Notes: generated from the sequence alone by a model not told the origin. Positions 5,607 through 56,216 are shown, numbered from the stretch's first letter. The stretch: DNA of 64,000 nucleotides from Vicinamibacterales bacterium (GCA_041394685.1 JAWKHU010000038.1:130087-194086); one strand, 5' to 3'. A program made the numbers and translations.

Positions 5607-7457
5607 CTACCGCACGGCCGTTCCGGCGCCCTGCTGCAGGGTCGTATAGGCGCCTTCGCGCAGCCCCGTCCAACGCTCCGTCTCACCCGACGGCCACCGC
5701 ACCCGCACCTCGCGCACACCCGACGATTCCAGGCCCGCGAGCACGCGCGGGTCGTGCGCGGACAGGTAGCCGCCATCCGTGTGCACGCGACGCCGCAGGG
5801 CGCGCCCGTCCGAGCGCACGACGATGACCTCCGCTCCGAGCATGTCGCGGGCGGGCGTCCGTCCGGCCAGCCGCAGGCCCACCCAGCGGGACTGGCCTGG
5901 GGTGTCGTTGCGCAGCACCCGCGCCGGGCCGTTGCTGTTGAGCAGCACGATGTCGGTGTCGCCGTCGTTGTCGAGGTCGCCGAGCGCCATGCCGCGGCTC
6001 ACCTCCGCCACGCGGAACGCCGGGCCGGCCTCAGCGGACGCGTCACGAAAGCGGCCGCCCGTGTGGATGAAGAGCTGAGTGGGCTGCGCGAGCGGATAGG
6101 GATCGCGCGGGTCGGTGGTGAGGCGCAGCACGGCGCCGTTGGCGGCCACCAGGTCGAGCCACCCGTCGTTGTTCACATCGGCCCACAATGTCCCGAAGCC
6201 GGTGTAGCGCGTGCCGAGCCCAAGCCCGGCCTCCCGCGTCCGATCCTCGAACACCGTCTTGCCGAGGTTCACGTACAGCGTGTTGGTCTCGTCCATCAGG
6301 TGCGTGAGGAAGATGTCGGGCCGGCCGTCGCCATTGAAATCCCCGGAGTCCACGCCCATGCCGGCTTCCGCCTGCCCGTCCCGGTTGAGGGCCGTGCCGC
6401 TCAGCAGTGCCGCGTTCTCGAACGTGCCGTCGTGACGGTTCATCCAGAGCTGGTTCTCGTAGCCGTCGTTGGCCACGTAGAGGTCCAGCCAGCCATCGCC
6501 GTCGAAGTCGTCGGCCACCACGCCGAGGCCGGCGCCGAACGCGCGCGCGATGCCGGCCGACGCCGTGACGTCCTGAAAGGTCCCATCACCCTTGTTGCGA
6601 TAGAGGATGTCGGGCACCGGCGGAAAGGACTTCGGGCCGCAGTAGTCGCGGGCGCTCGTGGCGGCGTAGCAGGCAGGCGGTCGCGCGAGATCCACCTCGA
6701 CATAGTTGGTGACGAACAGGTCGAGCCAGCCGTCGCGGTCGTAGTCCACGAACGACGCGCTCGTGCCCCAGCGCCGATCGCCCGTCCCCGAACGCGCGGT
6801 GGCGTCCTCGAAGCGGCCGCCGCCACGGTTCATCCACAACTGGTTGGCGCCAAGGTTGGTGATGGCAGGTCCACGCGGCCGTCGTTGTCCACGTCGCCGG
6901 CGGCCACTCCCATCCCGTAGCCACGCGCCTCGATCCCGCTCGCCGCGGTCACGTCAGTGAAGGTCAGGCGGGCCGACCCAGGCGCGAGGTCGTTGCGGTA
7001 GAGCCGTCCGGACGGCGGCTGCGCGCCGGTCCACGGCGTCAGCGTCTTCGCCGCATCGTCGGACGGCCGCAAGGTCGTGCCCTGCACGAGGAAGAGATCG
7101 AGATCGCCGTCGTTGTCGAAGTCGAACAGCGCGGCGCCGGAGCCGACTATCTCGGGATAGAGGTAGTCGCCGGTGAGGCCGTTGTAGTGACGGAAACGGA
7201 TGCCGGCCGCAGAGGTGATGTCGGTAAAGGTGGCGGGGGCCGCAGATGGCGCAGATGACACAGAGGCCGCAGATTGCGCGGAACTCGCAGAAGCCGCAGA
7301 TGGCGCAGATGACGCAGAGGCCGCAGATTGCGCGGATGACACAGGGGACGCAGATGGCGCAGATGGCGCGAATGAGGCGAAGGGGTGGAGGGTGCGAGGG
7401 GGCCACGCCCGAAACGGCGAGCACGAGGGCGACGATTGGGAGGGGAGGGCGGTGCAT
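5607..7457 (-). CDS. CRTAC1-family FG-GAP/VCBS repeat protein with ASPIC/UnbV C-terminal domain (frame breaks near 6850 and near 7385-7420)
   Basis: Repeats include FDFDNDGDLDLF, GDVDNDGRVDL, VDYDRDGWLDLFVTNY, DDFDGDGWLDLYVANDG, GDFNGDGRPDIF and GDLDNDGDTDIV. The C-terminus is ...GAEVIVV..GGYLSAHDPRV..VRVRWPSG. The gene is split over ORFs 5607..6839 and 6830..7342. The signal peptide MHRPPLPIVALVLAVSG (ATG at 7457) is in a third frame. Confidence 0.75.
7242..7385. repeat. Tandem 9-mer array, 16 units (GCAGATGGC/GCAGATGAC/GCAGAGGCC family) with a 54-bp higher-order period
   Basis: Read directly: gcagatggc gcagatgac acagaggcc gcagattgc gcggaactc gcagaagcc, repeated, then decaying (gcgaatgag gcgaagggg). 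On the minus strand it translates as a Ser/Ala linker between the signal peptide and the mature CRTAC1 domain. Confidence 0.9.
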
Positions 7458-8208: not shown

Positions 8209-8224
8209 CCCGACGATTGTACCG

Positions 8225-10282: not shown

Positions 10283-11275
10283 TGCACGGCCCGTCGGCTC
10301 CCGCCCTCTCCGTCGTCGTTGTCGTGTTCGACATGGCGCGCGAGGCGCCGCGGACGCTCTTCACGCTGTCGCCGGCGTATCAGGGCCTGCCCGCCGACAC
10401 CTACGAGGTCATCGTCGTGGACAACGGCTCGTCGCCGCCGCTCGGGCGCGAGACCGCGGAGGCCGTCGCGGCAACGTGCGGTGCACGTGTACGTGGACGA
10501 CGCGGCACCGTCGCCTGCAGCCGCGCTGAACCTGGAAGCGTGCTGAACGCGCGGAGGGACTGATCAGGTTCATGGTGGACGGCGCGCGCATGCTGTCGCC
10601 GGGCGTTCTCGGCTACGCGCATCAGGCGGCCCGTGCCTATCGACGGCCGGTCGTGAGCACGCTGGGCTTTCACCTGGGCCACGAGCCCCAGGTGACCGCC
10701 ATGACAAGGGGCTACGACCAGGCCGTCGAGGACACCTTGCTCGACACCGTGGACTGGCGCGGCAACGGCTACGAGCTCTTCCGGATCTCGACGCCGGCAT
10801 CTCGTCCGGCCACGGCTGGTGGGGACCGCTCGCCGAGAGCAACTGCGTGTTCGTGACCCGCGACACCTTCGAGGCCCTCGGTGGCTTCGACGAGCGGTTC
10901 GACATGCCAGGCGGCGGGCTGGTGAACCTCGACTTCTACCGCCGCGCCTGCGAAGCTCCTGGGACCGAGCTGGTGGTCCTCCTCGGCGAGGGCTGCTTTC
11001 ACCAGTTCCACGGCGGCGCCATGACAGGACAGCGCATGGAAGACGTCGCCGCACGGTTCGCCACCCAGGACGCGCAGTACCGCGAGCTGCGTAGTGAACC
11101 GTACCGGCTGCCGCTGGTCCGCTGCGACTACATCGGTCACGCCCCGCCGGCGGCGCACGCCTCGCTGGCGGACGGCGTGGCCAGGTTCGAGGCGTTCCGG
11201 ACCGCCTCACCCGAAGACGCGCGGGCGTACGCCGCCGGGGCCACTTCCGCCCAACCGGCCGCAGCCGGCCACGGC
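10282..11275 (+). CDS. Family 2 glycosyltransferase (frame breaks near 10540 and 10850; may be fused to the following sulfotransferase)
   Basis: Pieces are LSVVVVVFDMAREAPRTLFTLSPAYQGLPADTYEVIVVDNGSSPPL, a mid piece GVLGYAHQAARAYRRPVVSTLGFHLG, then FVTRDTFEALGGFDERFDMPGGGLVNLDFYRRA (a DxD/ED-type GT2 core). Confidence 0.6.
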
Positions 11276-12004
11276 TCCTCAGCGCCAGGTCATCGTCGTC
11301 GGCATGCATCGCAGCGGCACGAGCATGCTGACCGGAAGCCTGCAGCAGGCGGGGCTGGTGCTCGGCGAGGTCGTCACCGAGGCCCCGCACAACGCCAAGG
11401 GCAACCGCGAGTATCCCGCCATCCTGCACATGCAGGAGGAGCTGCTCGTCGCGAGCGGTGGCTCGTGGGACCGGCCGCCAGCGGAGGTGCGCTGGGGAGT
11501 CGCGGCACCGCGCCGTGCGCGACCTCTTCATCGCGCGCTTCCGGACGAGCCGCTCTGGGGTTCAGGATCCGCGCACGCTGCTGACGCTCGAGGGGTGGCT
11601 CAGGCGCTGCCGTCCGCGGAGTTCGCCGGCATCTTCCGCCATCCGGCCCTGGTGGCGCGCTCCCTGCGCCGCCGCACTGGGCTCGACATGGACACGGGCC
11701 TCGAGCTCTGGCGCGTCTACAACACGCGGCTACTCGAGCTGCACCGCCGCCATGCGTTCCCGCTCATGGAGTTCACGACGACGCCGCGGAAGTTCGGCGG
11801 CAGATGGCGACGATGATCGCGCGGCTGGAGCTGCCGAACCGGCAGGCGCCGTCGTTCTTCGAGGACCGGTTGCGGACACGTCCCGCCGACGAGGCGCCGT
11901 TGCCGGACGCGGTGTCGAGGCTGTACGCGGAGCTGCGGGAGCGAGCGGGTACGCCCCGGCCGGCGCCCGATGAGCAGCCGGCCGGGAGTCGAACGGACGG
12001 TTAG
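11276..12004 (+). CDS. Sulfotransferase-family protein (frame breaks near 11520 and 11810; start uncertain)
   Basis: The 5'-PSB-type motif VIVVGMHRSGTSMLTGSL is followed by GNREYPAILHMQEELL, then FRHPALVARSLRRRTG..LELWRVYNTRLLELHRRHAFPLMEF. It is paralogous to the N-domain of 13859..15312. Confidence 0.55.
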
Positions 12005-16746: not shown

Positions 16747-16761
16747 GGGGGAGTTTAGTCT

Positions 16762-16844
16762 GGGGCGTGGGGCGGGGGCGTGGGGCGTGGGGCGTGGGAC
16801 CTGGGGCTTGGGGCTTGGGGCTTGGGGCTTGGGGCCTGGGACTT
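16762..16844 (+). repeat. Tandem G-rich 7-mer array (GGGGCGT then GGGGCTT), 12 G-tracts
   Basis: Read directly: GGGGCGT GGGGC GGGGGCGT GGGGCGT GGGGCGT GGGACCT GGGGCTT x4 GGGGCCT GGGACTT. It lies in the 161-bp divergent spacer between the dehydrogenase start (16746, minus) and the propeller-gene start (16908, plus). Confidence 0.9.
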
Positions 16845-19889: not shown

Positions 19890-20020
19890 CACGAAGGGCA
19901 CGAAGGGGAGAACACGAAGGGGGGCACGGAGGACACGAAGAGCACGAAGGGGACGAAGGGCACGGAGGGCACGGAGAGCACAGGGGGCGCGGAGGGCGCG
20001 GAGGGCTCGAGGGGATCGAG
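19890..20020 (+). repeat. Tandem purine-rich 9-mer array (CACGAAGGG family), about 14 units, decaying 3'-ward
   Basis: It starts on the nucleotide after the TGA stop (19887..19889): cacgaaggg cacgaaggg ... cacggagga cacgaagag cacgaaggg gacgaaggg cacggaggg cacggagag cacaggggg cgcggaggg cgcggaggg ctcgagggg atcgagcgt. Confidence 0.9.
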
Positions 20021-34698: not shown

Positions 34699-36624
34699 TC
34701 AGAAGACGTCCACGCGCATGTCGGCCGTCGCCGGACCGATGCCCGCCACGTTCATCGCCCGCACGCGCACGTAGTAGGTGCCCGGAGGCGCGTTGGCGGC
34801 CACCAGCGACTCCTGCGGCGTCATCATCGTGCCCACGTCCGTGAGACCGATCTGCGATCCCACCTCGACGATGTAGTTGTCAACGGGACCGCCGGCCGAT
34901 GGTGCCTGCCACGCAAGCGTGACGGTGCGGCCCGTCAGCAGGTGTGTGAGGCCGTCGGGCGCGCCCGGCGGGGCCACGCTGGTGGACAGGGTGACGGCGA
35001 CGTCGTTGGAGGGCGCACCGGTACCGCAGGCGTTGAGCCCGCGCACGCGCAGGTAATAGGTCCCCGGAGGGCCCGTCGCCACCAGCGCCGGCAGGCCACC
35101 GATGTTGCGGCGGCCGTGCTCGACGCCGCCCGGCGTGGCTCCCACTTCGAGCAGGTAGGCAGTGGCTCCAGGCGCGGCGCCCAGTGCGAGCGACATCTGC
35201 AGGCCGTCCACCGTGGCCGCCAGCGGTCCGGGCGCCTGCGGCTCCGACATGCACCCGGTAGCGCCCAGCGTCACCAGCAGCTCGCTCGATGGCGGGCCGA
35301 GCCCGTATGCGTTTCGTCCCCGCACGCGCACGTAGTAGGTGCCGGCCGGCGCGTCGGCGTCGAAGGTGGTCGCCGCTCCCGCCGTGGCCTGGACCAGCAG
35401 GTTGCTTGCTCCAGCCACCGACCCCGCCTCGATGATGTAGTCGGCCGGAAGGCCGCCGGTGGTCGGCGGCAGCCACGACAGCCGCACGCGGAACGTCGTT
35501 GCGGTTGGCGAGTCGCCCATGCGGGCGATGCGCCCCTGCGCAGGCTGGAGCTGGTCGAACCCGAACGTGCGAATCGCGAAGCCCCAGGCCGCGTCTGCAC
35601 CAGGCGCGGTCACCGCCGCATCGCCTTGCTGACCCGCGACGGCATAGGACAACAGGAGGGGCGCACCGGGCACGCGCGAGAAGGTGGGTGACGGCGTCGG
35701 CGTAGGTATTGGAGTCGCCGACGGCGTCGGCGTCGGTACGGGAGTCGCCGACGGCGTCGGTGTCGGCACCGGGCTGGCCGATGGCGTCGGTGTCGGCACC
35801 GGACTCGCCGATGGCGTCGGCGTCGGCACCGGACTCGCCGATGGCGTCGGCGTCGGCACCGGACTCGCCGATGGCGTGGGGGTCGGCACCGGACTCGCGG
35901 AGGGCGTCGGTGTAGGCACCGGGCTCGCTGACGGCGTCGGCGTCGGCGTGACGTCGAAGTGATTGAACACGAGCGCGGGGCCCGCCTGCCCACCGTTCTC
36001 GCGGGAGGCCAGGAACATGCCGCCGTCGCCGCTGGTGGTCGTCCGGCGGATCCGGAACGTCGTGGCGCCGCCGTTGACCAGGGCGGTGACGTCGAAGCTC
36101 AGCTCTCCCGGGCCGGTGTAGCCGCCCTCGGCGCCCGGGGGCGTCCCGGCCGCCGTGTTGTTGAAGGTCGCGTCTCCCTCCGTCTGCGTCGTCGAACACG
36201 CTTCGGCCGTGATTGTCTCGAACGTGGGCGTGAAGTCGATGACCACCTGCGTCACCAGCGTGACCTCGTCGGCCGGGCCGTAGGTGGACAGCAGGGTCGA
36301 GACGGCGGTGGGGTCGAAGATCACCAGCGCATCGGCGCTGTCGGCGCCCTGCACCTCCACCGTCAGCTGCCCGTCGGTGCCGAAGTTGGTATCGGGCTGG
36401 TCCGACCGCAGCGTGGTGTCGCCGGCCACGTCGATCTGCCGCAGGACGGCGTGCGCGGCCGTCACGCCGAAGAGCGGCCCCAGGGCCGCACCGCCGACGA
36501 TGCGACTGAGGTAGCTGACGCCGCCAGAGGCGGTGAAGCCGGTGCCGCCGACGAGCCGCTGCACGAAGCCGCGACGGGACAGCGGATAGCGAGGCCGGGG
36601 ATCGCCGGGGCCGGATGTCTCCAT
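34699..36624 (-). CDS. Tat-exported DNRLRE-domain protein with Pro/Thr/Ser decapeptide linker and three FN3 domains
   Basis: Intact 641 aa. Twin-arginine motif is [17 protein letters not shown]-like motif is [21 protein letters not shown]. There are nine [10 protein letters not shown] repeats. Three FN3 modules carry [13 protein letters not shown] signatures. Confidence 0.8.
35683..35949 (-). repeat. In-frame 30-bp tandem repeat x9 encoding (TPTPSA[ST]P[VI]P)n linker
   Basis: Read directly. Several units differ only by synonymous changes (gcgagt versus gccagc for Ala-Ser) while the peptide stays identical. Confidence 0.9.
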
Positions 36625-36772
36625 GGTCGGGCGTATTATCGGACGCCGCGCGGACGGACGGCAGGGCCTCGGCGCGCGCGCCGGAGAATTCAGTGCAAGC
36701 CACTTCGGACGCCGCCCGACGGCCCGCCGTCGATCATCCCTTGCGTCGAGGCCGGGGTTCGCAGTGCGCTCT

Positions 36773-36930
36773 GTGACCGTGACGTTCGTCGTTCATCACG
36801 CGCATCGGGCCCATCACCACCGTTCCACGAACGGCCCGGCCGGACTGCGCGCGTAACACGACGAAGACATTCACGACGATTCGTTTCACGCGAAGGCCCG
36901 CTGGGAAACCAGCGGGCCTTTGTCGTTTCT
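36773..36930 (+). promoter_or_regulatory. Candidate his-operon leader: His-rich leader ORF (GTG 36773 or 36779 to TAA 36854..36856) plus terminator = putative attenuator
   Basis: The codons read GTG ACC GTG ACG TTC GTC GTT CAT CAC GCG CAT CGG GCC CAT CAC CAC CGT ... TAA, giving (M)[26 protein letters not shown] with 6 His in 9 codons. A small hairpin CCGTTC-CAC-GAACGG (36820..36834) follows, then the terminator. It lies 22 nt upstream of the hisI ATG. Confidence 0.6.
36893..36930 (+). terminator. Intrinsic terminator hairpin upstream of hisI
   Basis: A 12-bp stem AAGGCCCGCTGG / CCAGCGGGCCTT with a GAAA tetraloop, followed by TTGTCGTTTCT. Confidence 0.7.
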
Positions 36931-36951
36931 GGCCGGCAACCGGGAGTGGTT

Positions 36952-37312
36952 ATGGATTTCAGCAAGCTGGACGGGCTCATCCCCGCCGTCGTGCAGGACC
37001 GCACGAGCGGCGAGGTGTTGATGGTGGGTTTCATGAACGACGAGGCCTGGGCGATCACGCAGCGCACCGGGTACGTCACCTTCTTCAGCCGCACGCGCAA
37101 CACGCTCTGGACCAAGGGCGAGACCTCTGGCAACCGCCTGGCGGTAGCGGCAGATCTGGACCGACTGCGACGACGACACGGTGCTGGTGAAGGTGGACCG
37201 GGAAGGCGACGGAAACGTGTGCCACACCGGGCAGCGCTCGTGCTTCTACACGGAAGTGCCGCTGACCGGCGGCGGGCAGCCGGCGGCGGGCGCGGCGGGA
37301 GCAGCCCGATGA
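36952..37312 (+). CDS. hisI: Phosphoribosyl-AMP cyclohydrolase, monofunctional (one frame break near 37150)
   Basis: GGGAG RBS. The N-terminal part is [61 protein letters not shown]. In the next frame it continues [29 protein letters not shown]. The stop TGA overlaps the hisG ATG (ATGA). Confidence 0.8.
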
Positions 37313-38194
37313 AGCTGCGGCTCGGCATTCCCAAGGGCTCGCTCGAGCAGGCCACCGTCCAGCTCTTCCAGCGGGCGGGCTTCCAGGTGCTGGTCTCGTC
37401 GCGCTCCTACTTCCCCTCCATCGACGACCCCGAGATCGAGTGCATGCTGATCCGCGCGCAGGAGATGGCCCGCTACGTGGCCGACGGCATCCTCGACGCG
37501 GGCCTCACCGGCTTCGACTGGATTCGCGAGCACGAGATCGGCCACCCCGAGCAACCACCGCTGGTGCCGTCGCCGACCTCATCTACTCGAAACAGAGCTT
37601 CGGCAAGGTGCGCTGGGTGCTGGCCGCGCCGGAGGCTCCCCGTTCCAGACGGCAAAGGACTTCGAGGGCAAGCGCATCGCGACCGAGCTGGTGCGCGTGA
37701 CACGCGACTACTTCCAGCGCCACGGCGTGAACGTGGACGTCGAGTTCTCGTGGGGCGCCACCGAGGTCAAGCCGCCCGTGCTGGCCGACGCCATCGTCGA
37801 GGCCACCGAAACCGGGTCCACCCTGCGGGCCAACCGGCTCCGCATCCTGGACACGATCCTGGAGTCCAACACCCAGCTGATTGCCAACGACACAGCCATG
37901 GCCGACGACTGGAAGCGGACGAAGATCGAGAACCTCGCACTGCTGCTCAAGGCCGCGATAGAGGCACAGGGCCGCGTGGGGCTGATGCTCAACGTGCCGA
38001 AGGCGAGCCTCGACGAGGTGCTGGGCCTGCTGCCCGCCCTGCAGCGGCCCACGGTGAGCGCGCTCAGCGACCCCGAGTGGGTGGCCGTCAACACCATCCT
38101 GGAAGAGAAGACCGCGCGCGACCTGATCCCCAAGCTGAAGGCCGCCGGCGGACAAGGCATCGTGGAGTATCCGCTGACGAAGATCGTCATGTAG
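37309..38194 (+). CDS. hisG: ATP phosphoribosyltransferase, long form (two single-base frame breaks near 37540 and 37640)
   Basis: The protein is [20 protein letters not shown]...[15 protein letters not shown], then [22 protein letters not shown], then [25 protein letters not shown]...GLMLNVPK...EYPLTKIVM. The length of 886 nt equals 888 minus 2. Confidence 0.8.
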
Positions 38195-38250
38195 GAATTC
38201 AGAAGTCAGAATTCAGAATTCAGAAGTCAGAACGGAGAAGGCGGAGCACA
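38195..38250 (+). repeat. Tandem 7-mer array filling the hisG-hisD spacer (GAATTCA/GAAGTCA family, 8 units)
   Basis: GAATTCA GAAGTCA GAATTCA GAATTCA GAAGTCA GAACGGA GAAGGCG GAGCACA, running from the base after the hisG TAG to the A of the hisD ATG. The decayed 3' units supply the hisD RBS (GGAGAAGG). Confidence 0.9.
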
Positions 38251-39551
38251 TGATCCGGGTCGTTCCTTCCACCAATCGCAGGGCCGTGACGGCGCTGCTG
38301 TCCTCCACGCGGGTGCGCGACCGTGTCACCGACCGCAAGGCGGCCGCGATCGTCGAGCGCGTGCGCGCGGGCGGAGACCAGGCGTTGCGTGCCTGCGTGC
38401 GGGAGTTCGACGGCGTGTCCGGACCGCTGGAGATTCCGCGGGCACGCTGGGCGGAGGAGGCCGCGTCGGTTCCCGACGCCGTGCGTGAGGCCATTCGCAC
38501 GGCCGCCCGCCACATCCACCGGGTGGCCCGCGCGCAGGTGCCGCGCGGGTGGCGCGTGCGCGTCGAGCGCGGCGTCACCGTGGAGCAGCGCGTGGTGCCG
38601 CTGTCGCGCGTGGGCTGCTATGTCCCGGCCGGCCGGTATCCGCTGCCGTCGTCGCTGCTGATGACGGCGCTGCCCGCCAGGGCGGCCGGTGTGCCCGAGG
38701 TGATCGTGGCGTGCCCGCGGCCGGACGCCACCGTGTTCGCCGCGGCCATCGAAGCCGGCGTGGACCGCGTCTTTCGGATGGGCGGCGCCCACGCGATTGC
38801 GGCCCTGGCCTACGGCACGCGGAGCGTGCCGCGGGTGGACAAGATCGTGGGGCCGGGCAATCGCTGGGTCTCGGCGGCCAAGTCGCTCGTCACCGCGGAC
38901 TGCGCCATCGACTTCTATGCGGGCCCGACCGAGATCCTCGTGCTCGCGTCGAAGACCCCGCCGGCGTGGGTGGCAGCCGATCTCATTGCCCAGGCCGAGC
39001 ACGATCCGGACGCCCGGGCCGTGTGCGTCACCACGAGCCAGGCGTACGCCAACCGGATCGCGGCCGAAGTGGCCGCCCAGCTCCCCGCCACCGGGCCCGC
39101 GGCCACCTCGCTGGCGCGCCACGGCGGCATCATCGTCGCGCGCTCCCAGCGGGAGGCCGTGGATCTCGCCAACCAGGCGGCTTCCGAGCACCTGGTCGTG
39201 GAGAGCGACGCCGTCGCGGAGCAGATCGTGAACGCGGGCGCGATATTCGTGGGGAGCTGGACCGCCCAGGTGGCGGGCGACTACGCCATCGGCTCGAACC
39301 ACGTGCTGCCGACGGCCGGCGCGGGACGCTACCGCGGCGGGCTGAACGCCGCGGACTTCGTGAAGCTGATCTCCGTGCAGCGCGCCACGGAGCGGGGCCT
39401 GCGGGCCATTGCCGGCGCCGTGACGACGCTGGCGCGAGCCGAGGGCCTGGAGGGACACGCTCGGTCCATCGACGTGCGCATGGGGACCGGCACGCCGCCA
39501 CGAGCCGCACGCGGGGCGCGCGCGACAGCAGGGACGGAGACGACGCGATGA
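38250..39551 (+). CDS. hisD: Histidinol dehydrogenase
   Basis: Intact 433 aa with motifs [27 protein letters not shown] and EGLEGHARS. Confidence 0.9.
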
Positions 39552-40625
39552 CGAGGATACAGGGAGTGCCCGACCTGGGACCTGGGCTCAGGCTGCACCT
39601 GAACGAGAACACCGGCGGCTGTTCGCCGCGCGTGGTGGAGGCCGTCCGCGGATTCACCGCGGAGCGCCTGGCGCTGTGCCCGGACTTCACCGACGCCGTC
39701 ATGGAAACGGCCGCCTTCCTCGGGGTGGACGCCGACCGCCTGGTGCTCACCAACGGGTTGGACGAGGGCATCCTGCTCGCGTCGATCGCCTACACGGTGC
39801 CGCGCGCGCCGGAAGCACTCGTCGAGCTCGGCGCCCCGCTCGTGGTGCTGTCGGGTGTGCCGGAGGTCGTCGTGGCGCTGCCGACCTTCGAGCCGTACTG
39901 CACGCAGCCAGGGGCATGGGGGCGCGCGTCGTCTCGGTGCCCGCCGCGCCCGACTACGCGTTTCCACTCGAGGGCATGCTGCGGGCCATCACGCCGAACA
40001 CGCGGCTCGTCTACGTGAACTCTCCGAACAACCCCACCGGCCAGGTGGTCCCCGCCGACGCCATTCGCGCGGTGGCGGCCGCGGCCGGCCACGCTCTGGT
40101 GTTCGTGGACGAGGCGTAGCCCACGACTTCGCCGGCGAGAACTTCCTCGCCGAGGCGGCCGCGTTCCCCAACGTGCTGATCGGACGGACGTTCTCGAAGG
40201 CGTTCGGCCTGGCGGGCATGCGCGTCGGGGTGATGGCGGCGTCGCCGGCCGTGCTGGAGCCCATCCGGCGCGTCATGCCGCTCTTCAACCTGAACGTGGT
40301 CGCCGTGGCGGCGCTGCGGGCGGCGTTGGCCGATCCCGACTACCGGGCGTGGTATCTCGAGCAGGCCGCGGCGTCGAAGGCCCTCGTCTACGAGACGTGC
40401 GAGCGCCTCGGTCTTCGCTGCTGGCCGAGCGCGGCCAACTTCGTCCTGATCGATGGCGGCGACCGGGCAAGAGCGCTCGTCGCCGGCCTGATCGCGCGCG
40501 GCGTGTTCGTTCGCGACCGCACCGCCGATCCCTCGTGCCCGAACTGCTTCCGGCTGACGGCCGGCGTGGTCGAGCACACCCGGCGTGCCGTGGAGGCACT
40601 GGAGGCCGTATGCGCCGCGGCGTGA
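39548..40625 (+). CDS. hisC: Histidinol-phosphate aminotransferase (two single-base frame breaks near 39900 and 40115)
   Basis: ATGA overlap with hisD. Pieces are [25 protein letters not shown], and in a third frame [15 protein letters not shown] (the PLP-Lys motif). The length of 1078 nt equals 1080 minus 2. Confidence 0.8.
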
Positions 40626-41197
40626 CCGACCGCCGCACGGCGGAAACCCAGATTCGTGTCTCTATCTCGCTGGACGGGACGGGACGCTTCGACAACCGCA
40701 CGGGCATCCGCTTCCTGGACCACATGCTGGATCTCGTGGCACGGCACGGCGGTTTCGACCTGTCGGTGCGGGCGACCGGGGACCTGGACGTGGACCAGCA
40801 CCACACCGTCGAGGACGCGGGGATTGCCCTGGGCGAGGCGGTCTCGAAGGCGCTGGGCACGCGGCGCGGCATCAACCGGGCCGGCTACTTCGTCATGCCG
40901 ATGGACGAAACGCTGGCCGTGGCCGCCATCGACCTGAGCGGCCGGCCGCACACCGTCGTGGACACGCGCGTACGGGTCCGCCTGGTTGGGGACCTGCAGA
41001 CGGAGCTGGTGTACGACTTCTTCGAGGGCTTCGCGATGGGCGCGCGTGCCAACGTGCACCTGAAGGTGCTGTATGGCCGCTCGAACCATCACAAGATCGA
41101 GGCCTGCTTCAAGGCCTTCGGCCGCGCACTGCGCGTGGCCTGCGCGAAGGACAAGCGGCTGGCGAAGATGCTGCCCAGCACGAAAGGGCTGCTGTGA
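40610..41197 (+). CDS. hisB: Imidazoleglycerol-phosphate dehydratase
   Basis: Intact 195 aa: [49 protein letters not shown] and [16 protein letters not shown]. Confidence 0.9.
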
Positions 41198-41829
41198 TTG
41201 CACTGGTCGACTACGGCGCCGGCAACCTTACCTCGGTGCGCAAGGCGCTCGGCGCCATCGGTGCGTCGTTCTGGACGCCCGCGGCGCCGTCGGAGATTGC
41301 CGATGCGGCAGCGGTGGTCGTACCCGGGGTCGGGCACTTCAGCGCCACAGCGGCGCTGGACGAACCGTGGCGCGACGCGATTCGACGCGCACTTGCCGGC
41401 GGACGCCCGCTGCTCGGCATCTGCGTCGGCCTGCAGTGGCTGTTCGACGGCTCCACCGAGGCGCCAGACGTCCCCGGTCTTGGCGTGGTCGCGGGCACGT
41501 GCCGCCACCTGGGCGACCGGGACCCGGACGCGCGGACGGATGCCGGCGCCGACGGACTGAAGATTCCGCACGTCGGCTGGAACGACCTCACGTTCCCTCG
41601 CCCCACGCGCCTGTTCGACGGCCTCGCCGATGGCACGCAGGTGTACTTCACGCACTCGTTCGCGGCGCCCGTGGTGGCCGCGACCGCGGCCGTCACCACT
41701 TACGGCGTCGCGTTCAGCGCCGCCGTCGAGGACGGCCTGGTGTCCGGCGTGCAGTTCCACCCCGAGAAGTCCGGCGACGCGGGGCTTCGCATCCTGCGCA
41801 ACTGGGCCGCTGATACGGGCCGCAGATGA
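41194..41829 (+). CDS. hisH: Imidazole glycerol phosphate synthase, glutamine amidotransferase subunit
   Basis: The GTG start overlaps the hisB stop (GTGA). Motifs are [33 protein letters not shown] and VQFHPEKSG. The stop TGA (41827..41829) lies inside the first repeat unit. Confidence 0.85.
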
Positions 41830-42149
41830 CGCAGATAGCGCAGATGGCGCAGGGGCCGCAGATGACGCAGATGGCGCAGGGGCCGCAGATGGCGCAGATG
41901 ACGCAGAGGAGGCAGAGGAGGCAGAGGCGGCAGAGGCGGCAGAGGAACCTCGGGAGGGGACTCGAGGCGGCCAGGACCTCTCTGTCGGCTCCACATGCAT
42001 TGATGACGATGACGCCTACGCCCTCACCCTCTGGTCTTGATCCGTGGCATCCGTGGCATTCGCGCCCTCTGCGCTATCTGCGTCATCTGCGGCCTCCGCG
42101 CCCTCTGCGGCCTCTGTGCCATCTGCGGCCTCTGCGCCATCTGCGGCTC
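41822..42149. repeat. Inverted-arm tandem 9-mer element filling the hisH-hisF spacer (14 units, ~92-nt core, 12 inverted units)
   Basis: The left arm at 41822..41947 is GCAGATGAC GCAGATAGC GCAGATGGC GCAGGGGCC ... GCAGAGGCG GCAGAGGAA. The right arm at 42042..42149 is CCGTGGCAT CCGTGGCAT TCGCGCCCT CTGCGCTAT CTGCGTCAT CTGCGGCCT ... CTGCGCCAT CTGCGGCTC, the reverse-complement family. It is the same family as 7242..7385. Confidence 0.9.
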
Positions 42150-42163
42150 CAGGGATCGCGCTG

Positions 42164-42928
42164 ATGCTGTCCAAGCGCATCATTGCCTGTCTCGACGTCC
42201 GCGACGGTCTCGTCGTCAAGGGCATCAACTTCGAGGGGCTCCGCGAGGCGGGCGATCCGGCTGCCCTCGCGCGACGCTACAACGTCGAGGGCATCGACGA
42301 GATCGTGATCCTCGACGTGACGGCCACCATCGAGGCCCGCCAGGCGCGGGCGCACACCATTGCGGCCGTCGCTGGGGAGATCTTCCTGCCGCTCTGTGTC
42401 GGCGGCGGCATCCGCACCGAAGACGACGCCGCGGCGGCGGTCGAGGCGGGGGCCGACAAGGTGAGCCTCAATACTGCGGCGCTGCAGAACCCGGCGCTGA
42501 TCACGACGCTGGCGCGGCGCTACGGCAGCCAGGCGGTCATCGTCGCCGTGGACGCCAAGCGCCAGGACGGCCGGTTTGCCGTCTACGCGCGGAGCGGACA
42601 GGCCGAGACGCCGAAGGACGCCGTGGACTGGGCGCGGGAGGCGACCGATCGCGGCGCCGGAGAGATTCTGCTGACCTCGATCGACAAGGACGGTACGCGC
42701 AGCGGGTTCGACTGCGAGATGACGGCGGCGGTGTCGTCGGCGGTCAACATCCCGGTCATCGCCTCCGGCGGCGCCGGCAGCTTCGCGCACTTCGCCGAGG
42801 TGTTCACCGACGGCCGCGCGGACGCGGCGCTGGCGGCGTCCATCTTCCACTTCAACGAGCACAGCGTCGAGGCACTGAAGCAGTTCCTCCACGCGCGCCA
42901 CATCCCCGTACGGTTGCCCCCATGCTGA
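42164..42928 (+). CDS. hisF: Imidazole glycerol phosphate synthase, cyclase subunit
   Basis: MLSKRIIACLDVRDGLVVKGINFEGLREAGDP..., motifs GGGIRT and ASGGAG. The ORF-track start at 42044 is read-through of the repeat. Confidence 0.9.
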   Translation: MLSKRIIACLDVRDGLVVKGINFEGLREAGDPAALARRYNVEGIDEIVILDVTATIEARQARAHTIAAVAGEIFLPLCVGGGIRTEDDAAAAVEAGADKVSLNTAALQNPALITTLARRYGSQAVIVAVDAKRQDGRFAVYARSGQAETPKDAVDWAREATDRGAGEILLTSIDKDGTRSGFDCEMTAAVSSAVNIPVIASGGAGSFAHFAEVFTDGRADAALAASIFHFNEHSVEALKQFLHARHIPVRLPPC

Positions 42929-43644
42929 TTCCGTCCATCGACCTCCAGAACGGCCGCGTCGTGCAGCTCGTGCAGGGCGAGACGCTGGCCATTGCGAGCG
43001 ATGACATCGATGCCTGGATCGCGAAGTTCTCGCGCTTCCCGAAGGTGCAGCTCATCGATCTCGACGCCGCGATGTCCCGCGGCAACAACGATGCACTCGT
43101 GCGGCGGATCGCGGCCGTCCTGCCCTGCCGCGTCGGCGGCGGCGTGCGCACGGTGGGCCGCGCCGAGGAACTGCTGGCGGCGGGCGCGCAGGCGGTCATT
43201 GCCGGGTCGGGCCTCTTCCGCGGACCGGGCCAGTGGGGCGATGCGTCCGGCGGGGCGCCGCCGCCTGCCGCGGTGGTCAACCACGAGTTCGCCGAGGCGC
43301 TCGCCACCACCGTGGGTGCCGATCGCGTGATCGCCGCGGTGGACGCGCGCGGCGGCCGCGTGGTCATTCATGGGTGGAAGACGGCGCTTCCATTGAGCCC
43401 GGTGGACGCGGTGCAGCTACTGGACCGCCACTGCGGCGAGTTCCTCTACACGCACGTGGACAAGGAAGGGCTGATGCAGGGCACCGACATGGACGCCATC
43501 CGCGCGGTGCGCGACGCGACGAGCCGCCGCGTCACCGCGGCCGGGGGCATCACCACGCAGGAGGAAATCGCCGCCCTCGACGCCCTCGGCGTCGACGCGG
43601 TCGTCGGGATGGCGATCTATACGGGCACATTGGCGGTCGATTGA
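42922..43644 (+). CDS. hisA: HisA-type ProFAR isomerase (HisA/HisF family TIM barrel)
   Basis: The start overlaps the hisF end. Sequence is MLIPSIDLQNGRVVQLVQGE, then LIDLDAA, GGGVRT, YTHVDKEGLMQG and AAGGITT. 240 aa. Confidence 0.8.
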   Translation: MLIPSIDLQNGRVVQLVQGETLAIASDDIDAWIAKFSRFPKVQLIDLDAAMSRGNNDALVRRIAAVLPCRVGGGVRTVGRAEELLAAGAQAVIAGSGLFRGPGQWGDASGGAPPPAAVVNHEFAEALATTVGADRVIAAVDARGGRVVIHGWKTALPLSPVDAVQLLDRHCGEFLYTHVDKEGLMQGTDMDAIRAVRDATSRRVTAAGGITTQEEIAALDALGVDAVVGMAIYTGTLAVD

Positions 43645-43646
43645 CT

Positions 43647-43681
43647 TTCTTAATTCTGAATTCTGAATTCTGAATTCAGAA
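43647..43681. repeat. Tandem 7-mer array, inverse orientation (TTCTGAA family, 5 units) ending in a 14-bp perfect palindrome
   Basis: TTCTTAA TTCTGAA TTCTGAA TTCTGAA TTCAGAA, starting 2 nt after the hisA TGA. The palindrome TTCTGAATTCAGAA is at 43668..43681. It lies between convergent genes. Confidence 0.9.
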
Positions 43682-44250
43682 GCGCCCCTGACCGCCTCGC
43701 TGAGCGTATCGAGCAGCACCTGATCGCGGGCTTCGGCACGGTCACCGGGCTGCGCGCCCCACGTTTCGTCCAGCGCCGTCATGGTCCTCGCGACGCATCC
43801 CGCGTCGCAGGGCGCCAGCCCCCGCTGCGTGCTGAGCGAAGAGGCCCGGGCGGAAAGGGCGGCGAACCAACGGTCGAACAGCGACGTCTCGTATTCGGCG
43901 GAGCGGTTGCCCGGCTCCCACTTCAGGAGCCGATCCATGGCCTGGACGACCTGCGGGTCCACGGGCTTGCGCTTGCTGAGCGTGACCGAGAACACGGTCG
44001 TCGGCTGGCCGGTGAACGGCGAGTTGGGCGCGCCGCCGCCGACCTGGGTGTCCACGGGCGCCTCGACGCGCTGCTTGACGTCCTCGAGCAGCGGGATGAT
44101 GGCGCGCGCGGCGTCGGTACGTGCAGCCAGCGTTGCGGTATCCACCTCGATCGGCGTCGGTTGCTGGGCCCGGGCGCGGGTGGCCAGGGGCGCTGCTGCC
44201 AGGGCGATGAACGCCGCGATCGTGATGGTCGAGACGGATGGCTGCCTCAT
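43655..44250 (-). CDS. Hypothetical secreted protein (3' end uncertain)
   Basis: The start is MRQPSVSTITIAAFIALAAAPLATRARAQQ (signal peptide). The ORF formally runs to 43417 through the 7-mer array and 228 nt antisense into hisA, which looks non-coding. The true stop is probably at or just after the repeat. Confidence 0.45.
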
Positions 44251-44342
44251 GCGTGAGCTCCTGACTTCCACTACACCATGATTTGGCAGGCCGGGGAAGA
44301 GAGACGGATCGAGGAGACGAGGCCCGCGGGTAGAATCCGCGG

Positions 44343-45089
44343 GTGGCCGTCGGCTACCGCCCGCTCCTGCAGACACAGCGCGACCTCTACGCCCTTCCGC
44401 GAGACCTGTCGCGGTTCCGCGCCTACCTTGCCACGCTGCGCGATGAGGCGACCGGCGAGATGGCGCTCCCGCTGTCGGCGATGAACCCCATGGGCAAGGA
44501 CCACGTGCCCGCGCTGCTGGACGCGTATCTCGCGCTCGGGGCCGACGACATCGGCGCCCGCGCCGCCGCGGAGGCCGGCGCTGTATCCGCCAGCGAACCC
44601 GGAGCGGTGGAGGCCACCCTGGTCGTCTCCGACGACCTGCACGGCGGCTGGACGAATCGGTGGGCCAGCGAGTTCGGCCATCGATTCGAGTGCCAGGCCA
44701 TGATCACGCGCGGATGGGCAGTGGGCATCCTGTGGACGTCCGAGCCGGCATCGGCCGACGCGGCCCGTCGGGCGGTGCTGACCGCCATCCACCGGTTCGC
44801 CTACGTCCGCGCCCACGGGACGCCGACGACGCTGCGGGACATGCTCGCGCAGGAGGGCCACGTGATGGCACTCGGAGAGGACGCCACTCCCCGTCTCGAC
44901 GCCGAGGACCTGGCCTACACACGCGAGGTGATTGGCCCCCACCTCGACGCCACGGATCGCGCCACGCAGATGGCGTGCTGCTTCGGCGACGCCTGCGCCC
45001 GCGCACTGGGTTACGACCCCATGGGGCTGTCGGACCGCGCGGGCTTCGCGCTGGCCCTGGCCGACTACGCCGCGGTCCGATCGCGATAG
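44343..45089 (+). CDS. Conserved-looking hypothetical protein
   Basis: Intact 248-aa ORF with GC3-rich codon usage and a balanced composition. No family recognised. Confidence 0.55.
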   Translation: MAVGYRPLLQTQRDLYALPRDLSRFRAYLATLRDEATGEMALPLSAMNPMGKDHVPALLDAYLALGADDIGARAAAEAGAVSASEPGAVEATLVVSDDLHGGWTNRWASEFGHRFECQAMITRGWAVGILWTSEPASADAARRAVLTAIHRFAYVRAHGTPTTLRDMLAQEGHVMALGEDATPRLDAEDLAYTREVIGPHLDATDRATQMACCFGDACARALGYDPMGLSDRAGFALALADYAAVRSR

Positions 45090-45127
45090 GCCGCGTTTTT
45101 CCTCGCCCGGAGCTGGAGGCTGACCTC

Positions 45128-47566
45128 ATGCACGCCGATCTCATCGCCGCCCTGCGATCGCTCTCCGGTTCGAAGACCTACTCGCTGGTCGCGCTGCTCG
45201 TGCTGGCGCTGGGCATCGGCTCCGCCACCGCCATCTTCTCCGTCGTGGACGCCGTCGTCATCCGCGCGCTGCCGTTCGACGAACACGACCGGCTCGTCGC
45301 CGTCGGCGAGCGCCACCCCCCGCGCCCGGGCGCGGAGCCCGCGTCGGATCCGCTGGCCCTCGACAGCGCCTCGCCGCAGAACTACCTCGACTGGGCCGAA
45401 CGCCAGGAGGTCTTCGAGTCCGTCGCGGCGCTCACGCGTGGAAGCGCGGTCCTCCAGGAGCCGGGAGCGGCACCCGAGGACGTGCCGGTGCTCCGCACGA
45501 CGGCTGGCTTCTTCGACGTCCTCGGCGTCTCGCTGGCGATCGGTCAGCCCTACGCGGCGGACAACGAAATCGACGGGCGCCATCGCGTCGTCGTCCTCAG
45601 CGACGGGTTCTGGCGTCAGCGCTTCGGCGGCGATCCCGCGGTCGTCGGCCGCACGCTTCCCCTCGACGGCGACAGGTTCGAGATCCTGGGCGTGACACCG
45701 CCCGGGTTCGCGTACCCGCTCGCATCGGGCCGGCCCACCGATCTGTACCTGCCCTACGTCGTCCCCGAGAGCGAGCGCATCCGCAGGCCAGGCTGGGTCA
45801 GCGTCTATCTCCAGACCATTGCCCGGCTCCGGCCCGGCGTGTCGATCACCCAGGCGCAGGCGCAGATGGATACCATCGCCGCCTCACTCACGGCGGAGCA
45901 CCCGGACTGGAACAAGGACTCCTTCGTCGGCGTGCGGCCGCTGCACGATCACATCGTCGGCGCGTCCACGCAGTCGTGGATGACGATGCTCCTGGCGGCC
46001 TCGGGCGTGCTGCTGGCCATCGTGTGTGTGAACGTGGCCATGCTGCAGCTGGCGCGAGCGTCAACCCGCACGCGCGATCTCGGGGTGCGGGCGGCGCTCG
46101 GTGCGGGCCGTGGGCGGCTGATCCGCCAGGTGCTGGTCGAGAACCTGATCCTCGCGCTTGCCGGGGCCGCCCTTGGCGCGCTGATCGCCTGGTGGGGCGT
46201 GTGGATCCTCAAGGCGGCCATGCCGGCCAGTGTGCCGCGCGTCAGCGCGATTGCGCTGAACCTGCGCGTGCTGGCCGTGACCGGCCTCACGTCCGTGCTG
46301 GCTGGCGTCGCCTTCGGCCTCGGCCCGGCCCTGCGCCTGTCGAGGCCGAACCTCGTGACGGTCCTGAAGAGCGGGGCTCGAGGCACGGCCGGACGGGAGC
46401 ATCATCGTACGCACGGCATCTTGATCGTGGCCGAGGTCGCGCTCGCGGTGGTGCTGCTCGTCGGCGCCGCGCTGTTCGCCGCGAGCTTTGCCCGCGTGGT
46501 GCGCATCGAGCCGGGATTCGACACGAGCCAGGTGCTCACCGCCCAGATCTACCCTCAGGACATCCTGCCGGGCCAGCCGCCGCCGGACATGCGGGCACAG
46601 TTGATGGAACTGGCGGACCGCGCCTCGACGGAACCCGGTGTCGTCGGCGCTGCCGTCGTCAACGGCGGCATCCCGCTCGGCGCCGGCATGTGGACGACGA
46701 CGCTGCGCGTGCCCGGACATGTCGTGGACGGGCCGTCCACGGTCAGCGTGCGCGTCGTCACCGCCGCCTATCACGACGTGCTGCGGATTCCACTCCGGAG
46801 CGGCCGCCTCTTCAGCGACGACGACCGCGAGGGCGCGCCGAGGGCGCTCATCATCAACGAGTCCGCCGCGCGCATGTTCTTTCCGTCGGAGTCGCCGCTC
46901 GGACGCACCGCCACCTTCTCCGATCAGCCATGGACGATCGTCGGCGTGGTCGGTGACATCCACCAGACCGACCTCGAGATCGACCCGCGGCCCGAGATCT
47001 ACGTGCCGCTCGCGCAGTTCGGCCAGGGCACGGGCGAACTGCTGATCCGGACCGCCGGCGACCCATTGGCCGTGCTGCCACGCATGCGGACCGTCGTGTC
47101 GCAGGTGCTGCCGGGCGTTCCGCTGCGGAACGTGCGCACCCTCGACCAGCTGCTGGCGGGCCGCCTGGCGCAGCGCAGCCTGAGCATGATGCTGTTCAGC
47201 CTCTTCGGCGTGCTGGGGCTGGTGATCTCGGCCGTGGGCATCTACGGGATGCTGGCGCAGGTCGTCACCGATCGCACGCGGGAGATCGGCGTGCGCATGG
47301 CACTCGGGGCGTCGCGAGGGTCGGTGGTCCTCATGGTGACGCGGCGGGCTGGGGCACTGGTGGCGCTGGGGCTGGCGGCGGGCAGCGCGCTGGCCTGGTC
47401 CGCGGCCGACGGCGCGCAGCCCTTCCTCTACGACCTGGAGGCCACCGACGCCAAGGCGTTTGCCGTCTCCCTCGGGATCCTGGCGATGGCCGCCGTCGCG
47501 GCGTCGGCCATCCCGGCCCGTCGCGCGGCCAGCGTGGACCCGGCGGAGGCGCTGCGGGCCGAGTGA
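45128..47566 (+). CDS. ADOP-family duplicated MacB/FtsX-like ABC permease (second copy, orphan)
   Basis: GGAGG RBS. The start is MHADLIAALRSLSGSKTYSLVALLVLALGIGSATAIFSVVDAVV. Two FtsX modules are present, and the C-terminus is IPARRAASVDPAEALRAE. It is a paralogue of 1498..3891. Confidence 0.85.
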   Translation: MHADLIAALRSLSGSKTYSLVALLVLALGIGSATAIFSVVDAVVIRALPFDEHDRLVAVGERHPPRPGAEPASDPLALDSASPQNYLDWAERQEVFESVAALTRGSAVLQEPGAAPEDVPVLRTTAGFFDVLGVSLAIGQPYAADNEIDGRHRVVVLSDGFWRQRFGGDPAVVGRTLPLDGDRFEILGVTPPGFAYPLASGRPTDLYLPYVVPESERIRRPGWVSVYLQTIARLRPGVSITQAQAQMDTIAASLTAEHPDWNKDSFVGVRPLHDHIVGASTQSWMTMLLAASGVLLAIVCVNVAMLQLARASTRTRDLGVRAALGAGRGRLIRQVLVENLILALAGAALGALIAWWGVWILKAAMPASVPRVSAIALNLRVLAVTGLTSVLAGVAFGLGPALRLSRPNLVTVLKSGARGTAGREHHRTHGILIVAEVALAVVLLVGAALFAASFARVVRIEPGFDTSQVLTAQIYPQDILPGQPPPDMRAQLMELADRASTEPGVVGAAVVNGGIPLGAGMWTTTLRVPGHVVDGPSTVSVRVVTAAYHDVLRIPLRSGRLFSDDDREGAPRALIINESAARMFFPSESPLGRTATFSDQPWTIVGVVGDIHQTDLEIDPRPEIYVPLAQFGQGTGELLIRTAGDPLAVLPRMRTVVSQVLPGVPLRNVRTLDQLLAGRLAQRSLSMMLFSLFGVLGLVISAVGIYGMLAQVVTDRTREIGVRMALGASRGSVVLMVTRRAGALVALGLAAGSALAWSAADGAQPFLYDLEATDAKAFAVSLGILAMAAVAASAIPARRAASVDPAEALRAE

Positions 47567-55610: not shown

Positions 55611-56115
55611 TCAGCAGAGCGATACGCGCCACGTGGGCGCGATGTCCATCAGGGTGCGGTCCGACCTCGAGATCGAGATGCGCCGCACGTTTGCCTTCCC
55701 CCGCCGCCTCGTCTTCGAGGCGCACAGCAAGCCGGAGTACATCAGTCGCTGGTGGGGACCGCGCGGCAGCGAACTCATCAGCTGCGACATGGACTTTCGC
55801 CCGGGCGGCGCGTGGCGCTTCGTGGTCGGGAAGCCCGGCGGGCAGCAGTACGCGTTCCGCGGCGAGTACAAGGAAGTCGTCCCGCCCGAGCGCCTCGTCT
55901 ACACCTTCGAGTTCGAGGGCATGCCCGGATCGATCACCGTGGACGCGATCACCTTCACCGAGCACGAGGGGCACACCACGCTCACCTGCGTCAGCCGGAT
56001 GGACTCGATCGAAGCCCGCGACGCCATGCTGGCCTCCGGCATGGAGAAAGGCGCGGCCGAAACCTACGACCGGCTGGAGGAAATGCTCGGGGGGATCTCG
56101 GGGAATTCAGAATGA
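55594..56115 (+). CDS. SRPBCC / Aha1-domain protein
   Basis: It overlaps the arsR-like gene by 17 nt. Sequence pieces are FAFPRRLVFEAHSKPEYISRWWGP, GGAWRFV and YKEVVPPERLVYTFEFEG. Confidence 0.8.
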   Translation: MNASASQQSDTRHVGAMSIRVRSDLEIEMRRTFAFPRRLVFEAHSKPEYISRWWGPRGSELISCDMDFRPGGAWRFVVGKPGGQQYAFRGEYKEVVPPERLVYTFEFEGMPGSITVDAITFTEHEGHTTLTCVSRMDSIEARDAMLASGMEKGAAETYDRLEEMLGGISGNSE

Positions 56116-56216
56116 AGAAGTCAGAATTCAGAAGGGCCGTTGGCCGACCTCGGCTTTGTGCCTTTTGCCTTCTGCCTTCTTGATTTCGGCATTCTGCATT
56201 CTGAATTCTGAATTCC
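56103..56216. repeat. Inverted-arm tandem 7-mer element (GAATTCA/GAAGTCA family)
   Basis: The left arm is GAATTCA GAATGAA GAAGTCA GAATTCA GAAGG (56103..56135) and contains the SRPBCC stop codon. After a ~25-nt core comes the right arm CCTTTTG CCTTCTG CCTTCTT GATTTCG GCATTCT GCATTCT GAATTCT GAATTCC (56161..56216). The outer ends GGGAATTC...GAATTCCC are complementary. Confidence 0.9.

Follow-up and report, generated by a model that had tools for sequence, protein, structure and literature searches.

Two GAATTCA arrays bracketing hisD to hisA in a Vicinamibacterales genome are probably independent members of a class of 7-9-nt intergenic repeats

Intergenic heptanucleotide arrays, inverted pairs among them, form a described class of bacterial repeat (PMC4692102, PMC4679880). 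Here we consider two such arrays, built on the unit GAATTCA, in the histidine (his) operon of a Vicinamibacterales bacterium (GCA_041394685.1, JAWKHU010000038.1:130087-194086). One fills the spacer between hisG and hisD, the other follows hisA in the inverse orientation, and together they bracket hisD-hisC-hisB-hisH-hisF-hisA. The reading that we judge probable is that they are two independent members of a class of 7-9-nt intergenic arrays and that the bracketing is coincidental. The whole stretch of DNA analysed, termed the window, is 64 kb of the source genome and statements on that genome are limited to it; positions are counted from its first letter.

The closest described repeats are the long simple sequence repeats (LSSR) of heptanucleotides and the short tandemly repeated repetitive (STRR) sequences of cyanobacteria (Mrazek 2007 and Mazel 1990, in so far as they are reported in PMC4679880 and PMC4692102). 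The his arrays resemble LSSR and STRR, as represented there, in being 7-nt tandems in non-coding spacers, with a unit that is dispersed and with copy number and position that vary among relatives. They differ in their host, a 71% G+C acidobacterium, in the admixture of 8-9-nt units and in that arrays often fill the whole spacer. Named STRR units reportedly include CCCCAGT, TTGGTCA and CAACAGT. Judged against these units the his arrays, with the unit GAATTCA and a Vicinamibacterales host, are not cyanobacterial STRR in the strict sense.

Two further sets of intergenic heptamers invite comparison. The GGGAATC repeats of Xanthomonas and GGGGAYT repeats of Nostoc are located near gene ends, some of them in inverted pairs with stem-loop or cruciform potential (Rehm et al. 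2015, PMC4692102). Both units are rich in G and form quadruplexes, whereas GAATTCA is AT-rich and built on a palindromic hexamer and, unlike GGGAATC and GGGGAYT, the his arrays occupy positions that are not conserved among the available relatives. The TAACTGA repeats of marine Beggiatoaceae, Cyanobacteria and Bacteroidetes are placed directly upstream of start codons, over the ribosome-binding site (RBS) region (MacGregor 2015, PMC4679880), and binding of S1, Csp or CsrA has been proposed (PMC4679880). They resemble the array upstream of hisD and are a case of one heptamer common to distant phyla. However, nearly all TAACTGA repeats share one orientation to the downstream gene (one set is inverted) while GAATTCA arrays occur in both orientations, commonly as hairpin pairs.

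Repetitive extragenic palindromic sequences (REP) and bacterial interspersed mosaic elements (BIME) act locally on mRNA stability; they are single imperfect palindromes of ~35 nt with a consensus, spread by REP-associated tyrosine transposases (RAYT). These dispersed hairpin repeats, intercistronic or at the 3′ end within operons, were reportedly recognised first in histidine operons, in work said to be that of Higgins et al. 1982 and Stern et al. 1984. Hairpins formed by local arrays would most plausibly work in a similar manner although, unlike REP, the arrays are tandem 7-9-nt units. In the literature searched the GAATTCA unit returned primer matches only, and no description of such arrays in Acidobacteriota was found. 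The his arrays belong to the described but unexplained intergenic heptanucleotide class.

The two arrays, and a palindrome within the second, are as follows.

38195..38249, plus strand: 5′ array, directly behind the hisG stop, with five GAATTCA/GAAGTCA units and a tail (GAATTCA GAAGTCA GAATTCA GAATTCA GAAGTCA GAACGGA GAAGGCG GAGCAC)
43647..43681, plus strand: 3′ array (TTCTTAA TTCTGAA TTCTGAA TTCTGAA TTCAGAA)
43668..43681, no strand assigned: perfect 14-bp palindrome, TTCTGAATTCAGAA, within the 3′ array

Repeat arrays were located with Tandem Repeats Finder and by pattern counts set against chance expectation. Gene ends were read directly from the sequence and then checked by Pfam and tblastn, frame calls from the G+C content of third codon positions (GC3) being too noisy near arrays. 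The 5′ array occupies the entire 55-bp spacer between the hisG stop (TAG, 38192-38194) and the hisD ATG at 38250. The initial annotation had described this spacer as an array of 7-mers whose tail units supply the hisD RBS, and it was correct in both respects; the Shine-Dalgarno sequence, GGAGAAGG, is at 38234-38241 within the GAACGGA GAAGGCG GAGCAC tail. The predicted local RNA fold of the 5′ array is not significant (z = -1.1). The inverse array begins, as had been noted, 2 nt past the hisA stop (TGA, 43642-43644, then CT).

Copy numbers are 5.4 for the 5′ array and 5.0 for the 3′ array, with matches of 90-92% according to Tandem Repeats Finder. Both consist of at least three head-to-tail 7-nt copies, above chance, in a non-coding location. 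The two-unit pattern has 15 matches in the window where 0.02 are expected. The hexamer GAATTC has 12 sites against 3.6 expected, with ten of the 12 inside arrays of GAATTCA units, and four of the six AT-rich islands of the window are such arrays. The longest exact complementary run between the 5′ and 3′ arrays is 20 nt (TCAGAATTCAGAATTCAGAA), consistent with the at least 18 nt first reported, and the 3′ copy does end in a perfect 14-bp palindrome. The palindrome, TTCTGAATTCAGAA, corresponds to one T to A change at the seventh ("spacer") base between palindromic GAATTC hexamers.

What does inversion signify for a unit of this kind? GAATTC is its own reverse complement, so a forward array reads (GAATTC-A)n, an inverse array (GAATTC-T)n, and a single base in every seven tells the two orientations apart. 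Aligned without gaps in its best register, the 35-nt 5′ array agrees with the 3′ region at 29 of 35 positions when inverted and at 27 of 35 when direct. To call the arrays mutually inverted, as was done at the outset, is justified in that inverse units are present, but the signal is weak. The mutual inversion of the his arrays is most likely a coin-flip outcome resting on a single base per unit.

The source HisD is identical to MEZ5285186.1, from a Vicinamibacterales metagenome-assembled genome (MAG), and the next best proteins in the homology search are at most 80% identical. The clade sample comprises 84 related his loci (four long contigs and 80 metagenome loci, HisD 57-80% identical), all with the gene order hisI-G-D-C-B-H-F-A. 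GAATTCA is present at the hisG-hisD or post-hisA junction in none of the 84. The presence, unit and copy number of arrays vary among these loci, as they do in the heptanucleotide class. The hisG-hisD junction, compared in about 65 loci, extends from a 4-nt overlap to 193 bp. Expanded junctions are filled by other units, frequently paired locally in inverse orientation about a core, and these include CACGAAGG, found in several relatives, CACGGAGA, GGGTCTTG, GGGCTTG, TCAGGGA and more.

In the three closest relatives the hisG-hisD spacer is 8-9 bp (GAGATCACC, GAGCCGAC, GAGACCACC), and two of the three are without an array after hisA. Because GGAGCAC, located just before the hisD ATG in the window, resembles this short spacer, the 5′ array appears to be a ~46-bp expansion between the stop codon and an ancestral spacer. 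The initial annotation divided the sequence into eight units and, while the sequence itself is as given, the terminal bases that it took for a last decayed unit may instead be that ancestral spacer. At the other end of the block the gene next to hisA differs among relatives, which places the 3′ array at a synteny breakpoint. The convergent minus-strand open reading frame (ORF) beyond it has homologues in two relatives; in tblastn comparisons the similarity stops exactly at the 3′ array boundary, and the array fills the gap up to that point.

Array orientation was assigned by a best-fit classifier and cross-checked with exact regular expressions, with local and distant pairs divided at 600 bp. 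Over 85 clade loci (745 kb, 137 arrays) the same-unit pairs more than 600 bp apart comprise 20 inverted and 23 direct, those within 600 bp nine inverted and two direct. The initial annotation had proposed that random orientation relative to operons would count against its suggestions and, as far as this part is concerned and within the available sequence, kilobase-range orientation is indeed random. One relative (L123; L numbers are our handles for loci) presents the same arrangement with another unit. There the 8-mer CCCCAAGA / GGGTCTTG occurs in alternating orientation at 8108-8261, 9818-9929 and 11264-11325, the sites being before hisI, between hisG and hisD (14 copies) and between hisD and hisC, and inverse arrays bracket hisI-hisG and hisD. 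On this evidence gene bracketing by inverse arrays is a common by-product of the class. A separate candidate, a terminator-like polarity with a purine-rich 5′ arm and a pyrimidine-rich 3′ arm, was rejected, the Vicinamibacterales arrays splitting 4 to 4.

The his pair is not unique in this genome, where 7-9-nt arrays occupy many spacers.

56103..56216, no strand assigned: third GAATTCA site, forward arm 56103-56134 and reverse arm 56191-56216, between an AHSA1/SRPBCC-family gene and an unrelated downstream gene
41821..42147, no strand assigned: hisH-hisF repeat, (CGCAGATGR)n/(GCAGAGGMG)n at 41821-41946 opposite inverse arrays at 42062-42147
7241..7369, plus strand: solitary array of the hisH-hisF 9-mer family, CGCAGATGG x14, complementary to 42062-42147
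16761..16840, plus strand: heptamer array, (TGGGGCG/TGGGGCT)x11, between divergent genes; GGGGCTT-type units recur in relatives
19890..20014, plus strand: array, (CACGAAGGG)x14, from the base after a TGA stop

The first of these puts the GAATTCA unit in a third, non-his spacer within 64 kb, and so the unit is dispersed. Its arms are about 60 nt apart, the core contains nested TGCCTTC-type units and a small GC hairpin, and the whole is predicted to fold as a single hairpin (-50.2 kcal/mol, z = -2.95). The 334-bp hisH-hisF spacer carries forward and inverse 9-mer arrays, with the hisH stop (TGA, 41827-41829) inside the first unit. As RNA, 41815-42165 is predicted to form a single hairpin (-219.7 kcal/mol, z = -8.8), the stem being about 90 bp long. 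In relatives hisH and hisF overlap or are separated by a 54-bp spacer. At hisG, hisH, hisA, the AHSA1 gene and the gene that ends at 19889, an array begins 0-2 nt from the stop codon or contains it. A duplex of -150.9 kcal/mol is predicted between the 9-mer arrays at 7241 and 42062, which are 34.7 kb apart, and strong complementarity is thus automatic for arrays of this class. A search of Rfam gave no match in the window.

A scan for GAATTCA arrays across phyla, with one genome per species and three perfect units required, returned at least 119 loci in Nostocales, Bacteroidota, Acidobacteriota, Gemmatimonadaceae, Planctomycetota, Verrucomicrobiota, Clostridia, candidate phyla and others (for example L115 3208-3315, L017 6049-6139 and L089 6824-7083). 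Among the matches listed the G+C content of the genomes is 33-69%, the arrays are abundant in Nostoc and Calothrix, and 98 arrays are solitary against 43 with a local partner. Among the same matches, local pairs (600 bp or less) are forward-then-reverse in 37 cases and reverse-then-forward in four, or 13 to 0 when exact units are counted. At distances of more than 600 bp there are three forward-reverse, 11 reverse-forward, 18 forward-forward and 11 reverse-reverse pairs, with no excess of gene-bracketing forward-then-reverse pairs. The arms of local units usually pair in the predicted fold, around cores of 15-400 bp, so that paired arrays usually take the form of a local hairpin, as at 56.1 kb. 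The cores of 28 local units are mostly unrelated, even within one genome, and local units have no clear preference for convergent junctions (17 tandem, six convergent, four divergent). The forward strand of GAATTCA is free of stop codons in all frames, and on the reverse strand each frame contains TGA. An ARG box or Fur-like 7-1-7 binding site was rejected as an identity for the unit because the spacing does not fit and the unit is found at unrelated loci.

The his arrays are, then, members of a class that is dispersed to other sites and genomes; they are conserved at neither junction, and the orientation of same-unit pairs over kilobases is random. In all likelihood they bracket hisD-hisA only because they are located in two spacers of one operon. 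Of the three possibilities raised initially we favour independent local roles, and do not favour long-range pairing or recombination. Arrays would arise and change length in place through replication slippage, expanding until they meet constrained sequence such as stop codons and ribosome-binding sites, and fold-back template switching may create local inverted partners or make their units uniform. Function, if there is any, would be local. The 5′ array might provide an AU-rich, largely unstructured leader upstream of the hisD RBS, perhaps a standby or S1-binding site in a genome of 71% G+C, and the 3′ array a modest hairpin where two convergent transcripts have their 3′ ends.

The bracket, probably a coincidence, is therefore not to be taken for an operon regulatory device or an invertible segment. 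The arrays are of interest in other respects. In soil members of the Vicinamibacterales (Acidobacteriota) 7-9-nt arrays are dense, about one per 5 kb in his regions, and they repeatedly remodel the intercistronic spacers of an essential operon, in some cases giving predicted hairpins of -50 to -220 kcal/mol. GAATTCA, for its part, is found with a fixed arm order in many phyla. This wider pattern offers a testable handle on the over-representation of heptanucleotides in bacterial intergenic DNA.

Several points weigh against coincidence. Within 36.5-45 kb no segment is a better partner for the 5′ array than the 3′ array, with a predicted net gain of about -24 kcal/mol once the cost of opening the local folds is deducted. 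The relatives are only ~80% identical in HisD and a recent, lineage-specific function would not show in the comparison. The analysis covers 64 kb of the source genome, and operon-bracketing pairs could be in excess over the genome as a whole. Local arm order is strict across phyla among the matches listed and the his pair shares that order, so that orientation is not always neutral. Finally, slippage alone does not explain a unit repertoire shared across genomes.

Could the arrays be something more active? A fixed arm order in at least eight phyla, a shared unit repertoire without conservation of position and starts 0-2 nt from stop codons all point towards 7-9-nt arrays being cross-phylum intergenic hairpin-forming repeats that are actively generated or selected, an idea that we consider possible but doubtful. 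Were it true, it would imply an undescribed sequence-specific mechanism or binding factor, and distant complementary arrays such as the his pair might occasionally serve as RNA "velcro".

We are similarly doubtful that the 3′ array acts as an intrinsic terminator in both directions, serving hisA and the convergent gene, a role proposed for its palindrome in the initial annotation. It lies between convergent genes and is predicted to form a 10-bp AU-rich hairpin on both strands (-11.6 kcal/mol, z = -4.6), and the GAATTCA arms of other genomes are often placed on either side of a GC-rich hairpin with T-rich sequence after it. The stem of the 3′ array, however, has G-C at only two of its ten pairs and no GC core, unlike local units elsewhere, and there is no U tract; the plus strand continues GCGCCCC. 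A scan of 36500-45500 found no terminator-like site.

Long-range pairing would have the arrays form a ~34-bp stem within the his mRNA that loops out hisD-hisA and controls stability, processing or hisD translation. The arrays are non-coding and on the same strand, the predicted 5′-3′ duplex has an energy of -43.4 kcal/mol (cofold -43.6, as against -19.9 for separate folds) and it would end 2 nt before the hisD Shine-Dalgarno sequence. Given that energy and the ranking of the 3′ array as best partner, the earlier suggestion of RNA pairing is feasible, but the pairing is not exclusive, compensated or conserved. Other partners are almost as favourable: in the 56-kb unit, the 3′ arm for the his 5′ array (-34.7 kcal/mol) and the 5′ arm for the his 3′ array (-38.4 kcal/mol), and for the his 3′ array also a second copy of itself (-33.8 kcal/mol). 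The 3′ array has, in addition, its own hairpin. The two GAAGTCA variant units introduce mismatches that are not compensated. The arrangement is kept in none of the 84 related loci, and the kilobase-range pairs, as described, have no orientation bias. The ~90-bp hisH-hisF stem (-220 kcal/mol) is a likely site of RNase III cleavage or pausing that would separate the two ends, and the 5′ array would lie between a terminating and an initiating ribosome.

The precedent for such pairing is instructive. In the RNase III stalks that flank 16S and 23S rRNA, complementary segments kilobases apart form a long stem and, to our knowledge, these stalks are the only well-established bacterial model. They are conserved, co-varying and part of untranslated RNA. 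The his pair has the stable complementarity of a processing stalk but is unconserved and uncompensated, and it flanks translated genes. We regard long-range pairing as quite unlikely.

It is also improbable that the arrays are the terminal inverted repeats of a miniature inverted-repeat transposable element (MITE), the his pair being a split element or two insertions. Local forward-core-reverse units do resemble small elements with inverted ends, their polarity is strict, the unit is found in many phyla and arrays mark variable junctions. Against this, the cores between arms are mostly unrelated and range in length from 15 to about 400 bp, and neither target-site duplication nor transposase was seen with the arrays. 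Since hisG and hisD are ancestrally adjacent, the his block is not an insertion within an element, and the short spacer of relatives, GAGATCA(CC), is identical to the unit at 5/7 positions, compatible with an origin in place. The local units were considered as a single MITE family and this too was rejected, their cores being unrelated.

Less probable still is the suggestion, also made initially, that inverted arrays let the 5.4-kb block flip or be excised: 20 bp of inverted identity does flank the block, but in E. coli such a length is at or under the minimum that RecA-dependent recombination needs to be efficient, no recombinase was found among the genes of the block (all his) or the Pfam domains of flanking ORFs, inversion would sever hisD-hisA from hisI-hisG and the promoter of these, all relatives have the ancestral gene order, and the arrays are almost equally alike as direct repeats (27/35 against 29/35).

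The bracketed genes are listed below; each was assigned by Pfam/NCBIfam and tblastn.

38250..43644, plus strand: bracketed block, hisD to hisA, all genes his genes
38250-39551, plus strand: hisD
about 39557-40625, plus strand: hisC, frame-shifted in the assembly
about 40610-41197, plus strand: hisB
41197-41829, plus strand: hisH
42164-42928, plus strand: hisF
42925-43644, plus strand: hisA

Pfam and NCBIfam confirm hisG, hisD, hisC, hisB, hisH and hisF and, for the last gene, HisA is the top-scoring family though under the NCBIfam cut-off. The names and order given in the initial annotation, hisD-C-B-H-F-A, are upheld. In hisI, hisG and hisC (36952-38194; 39557-40625) there are one or two frame switches each, yet the products are 74-92% identical to relatives by tblastn; the switches are probably indel errors of long-read metagenome assembly rather than marks of pseudogenes. 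Gene calls are fragmented in the relatives L120 and L121 too.

The convergent ORF (43417-44376, minus strand) is a secreted-protein gene; its product has a signal peptide but matches no Pfam family. The reading frame meets no stop codon ahead of the 3′ array and crosses the array and ~76 codons antisense to hisA. In L121 and L123 an additional gene of 141-143 amino acids is located between hisA and the homologue of this ORF.

A repertoire of units (CACGAAGG, CACGGAGA, GGGTCTTG, GGGCTTG, CGCAGATG and AGAA-phased units) is shared across Vicinamibacterales-like genomes at non-homologous positions. The sites include 19890-20014, 16761-16840 and 7241-7369 of the window and others in L121, L123-L125, L128, L139-L141, L146, L150 and L153. 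A GTCGGGA array upstream of hisI holds a conserved position in L120-L123. Heptamer and octamer arrays are also present within the hisH coding region of L120 (13352-13408), L121 (13341-13370) and L123 (13320-13414), where they appear as an insertion in a variable loop, the L123 HisH having extra residues there. Coding sequence, too, may therefore tolerate arrays. Elsewhere in the window a 30-nt unit, GACGGCGTCGGCGTCGGCACCGGACTCGCC, is repeated 8.6 times at 35690-35947 with an 89% match; its period is a multiple of three and it therefore probably encodes a repetitive protein segment on one strand.

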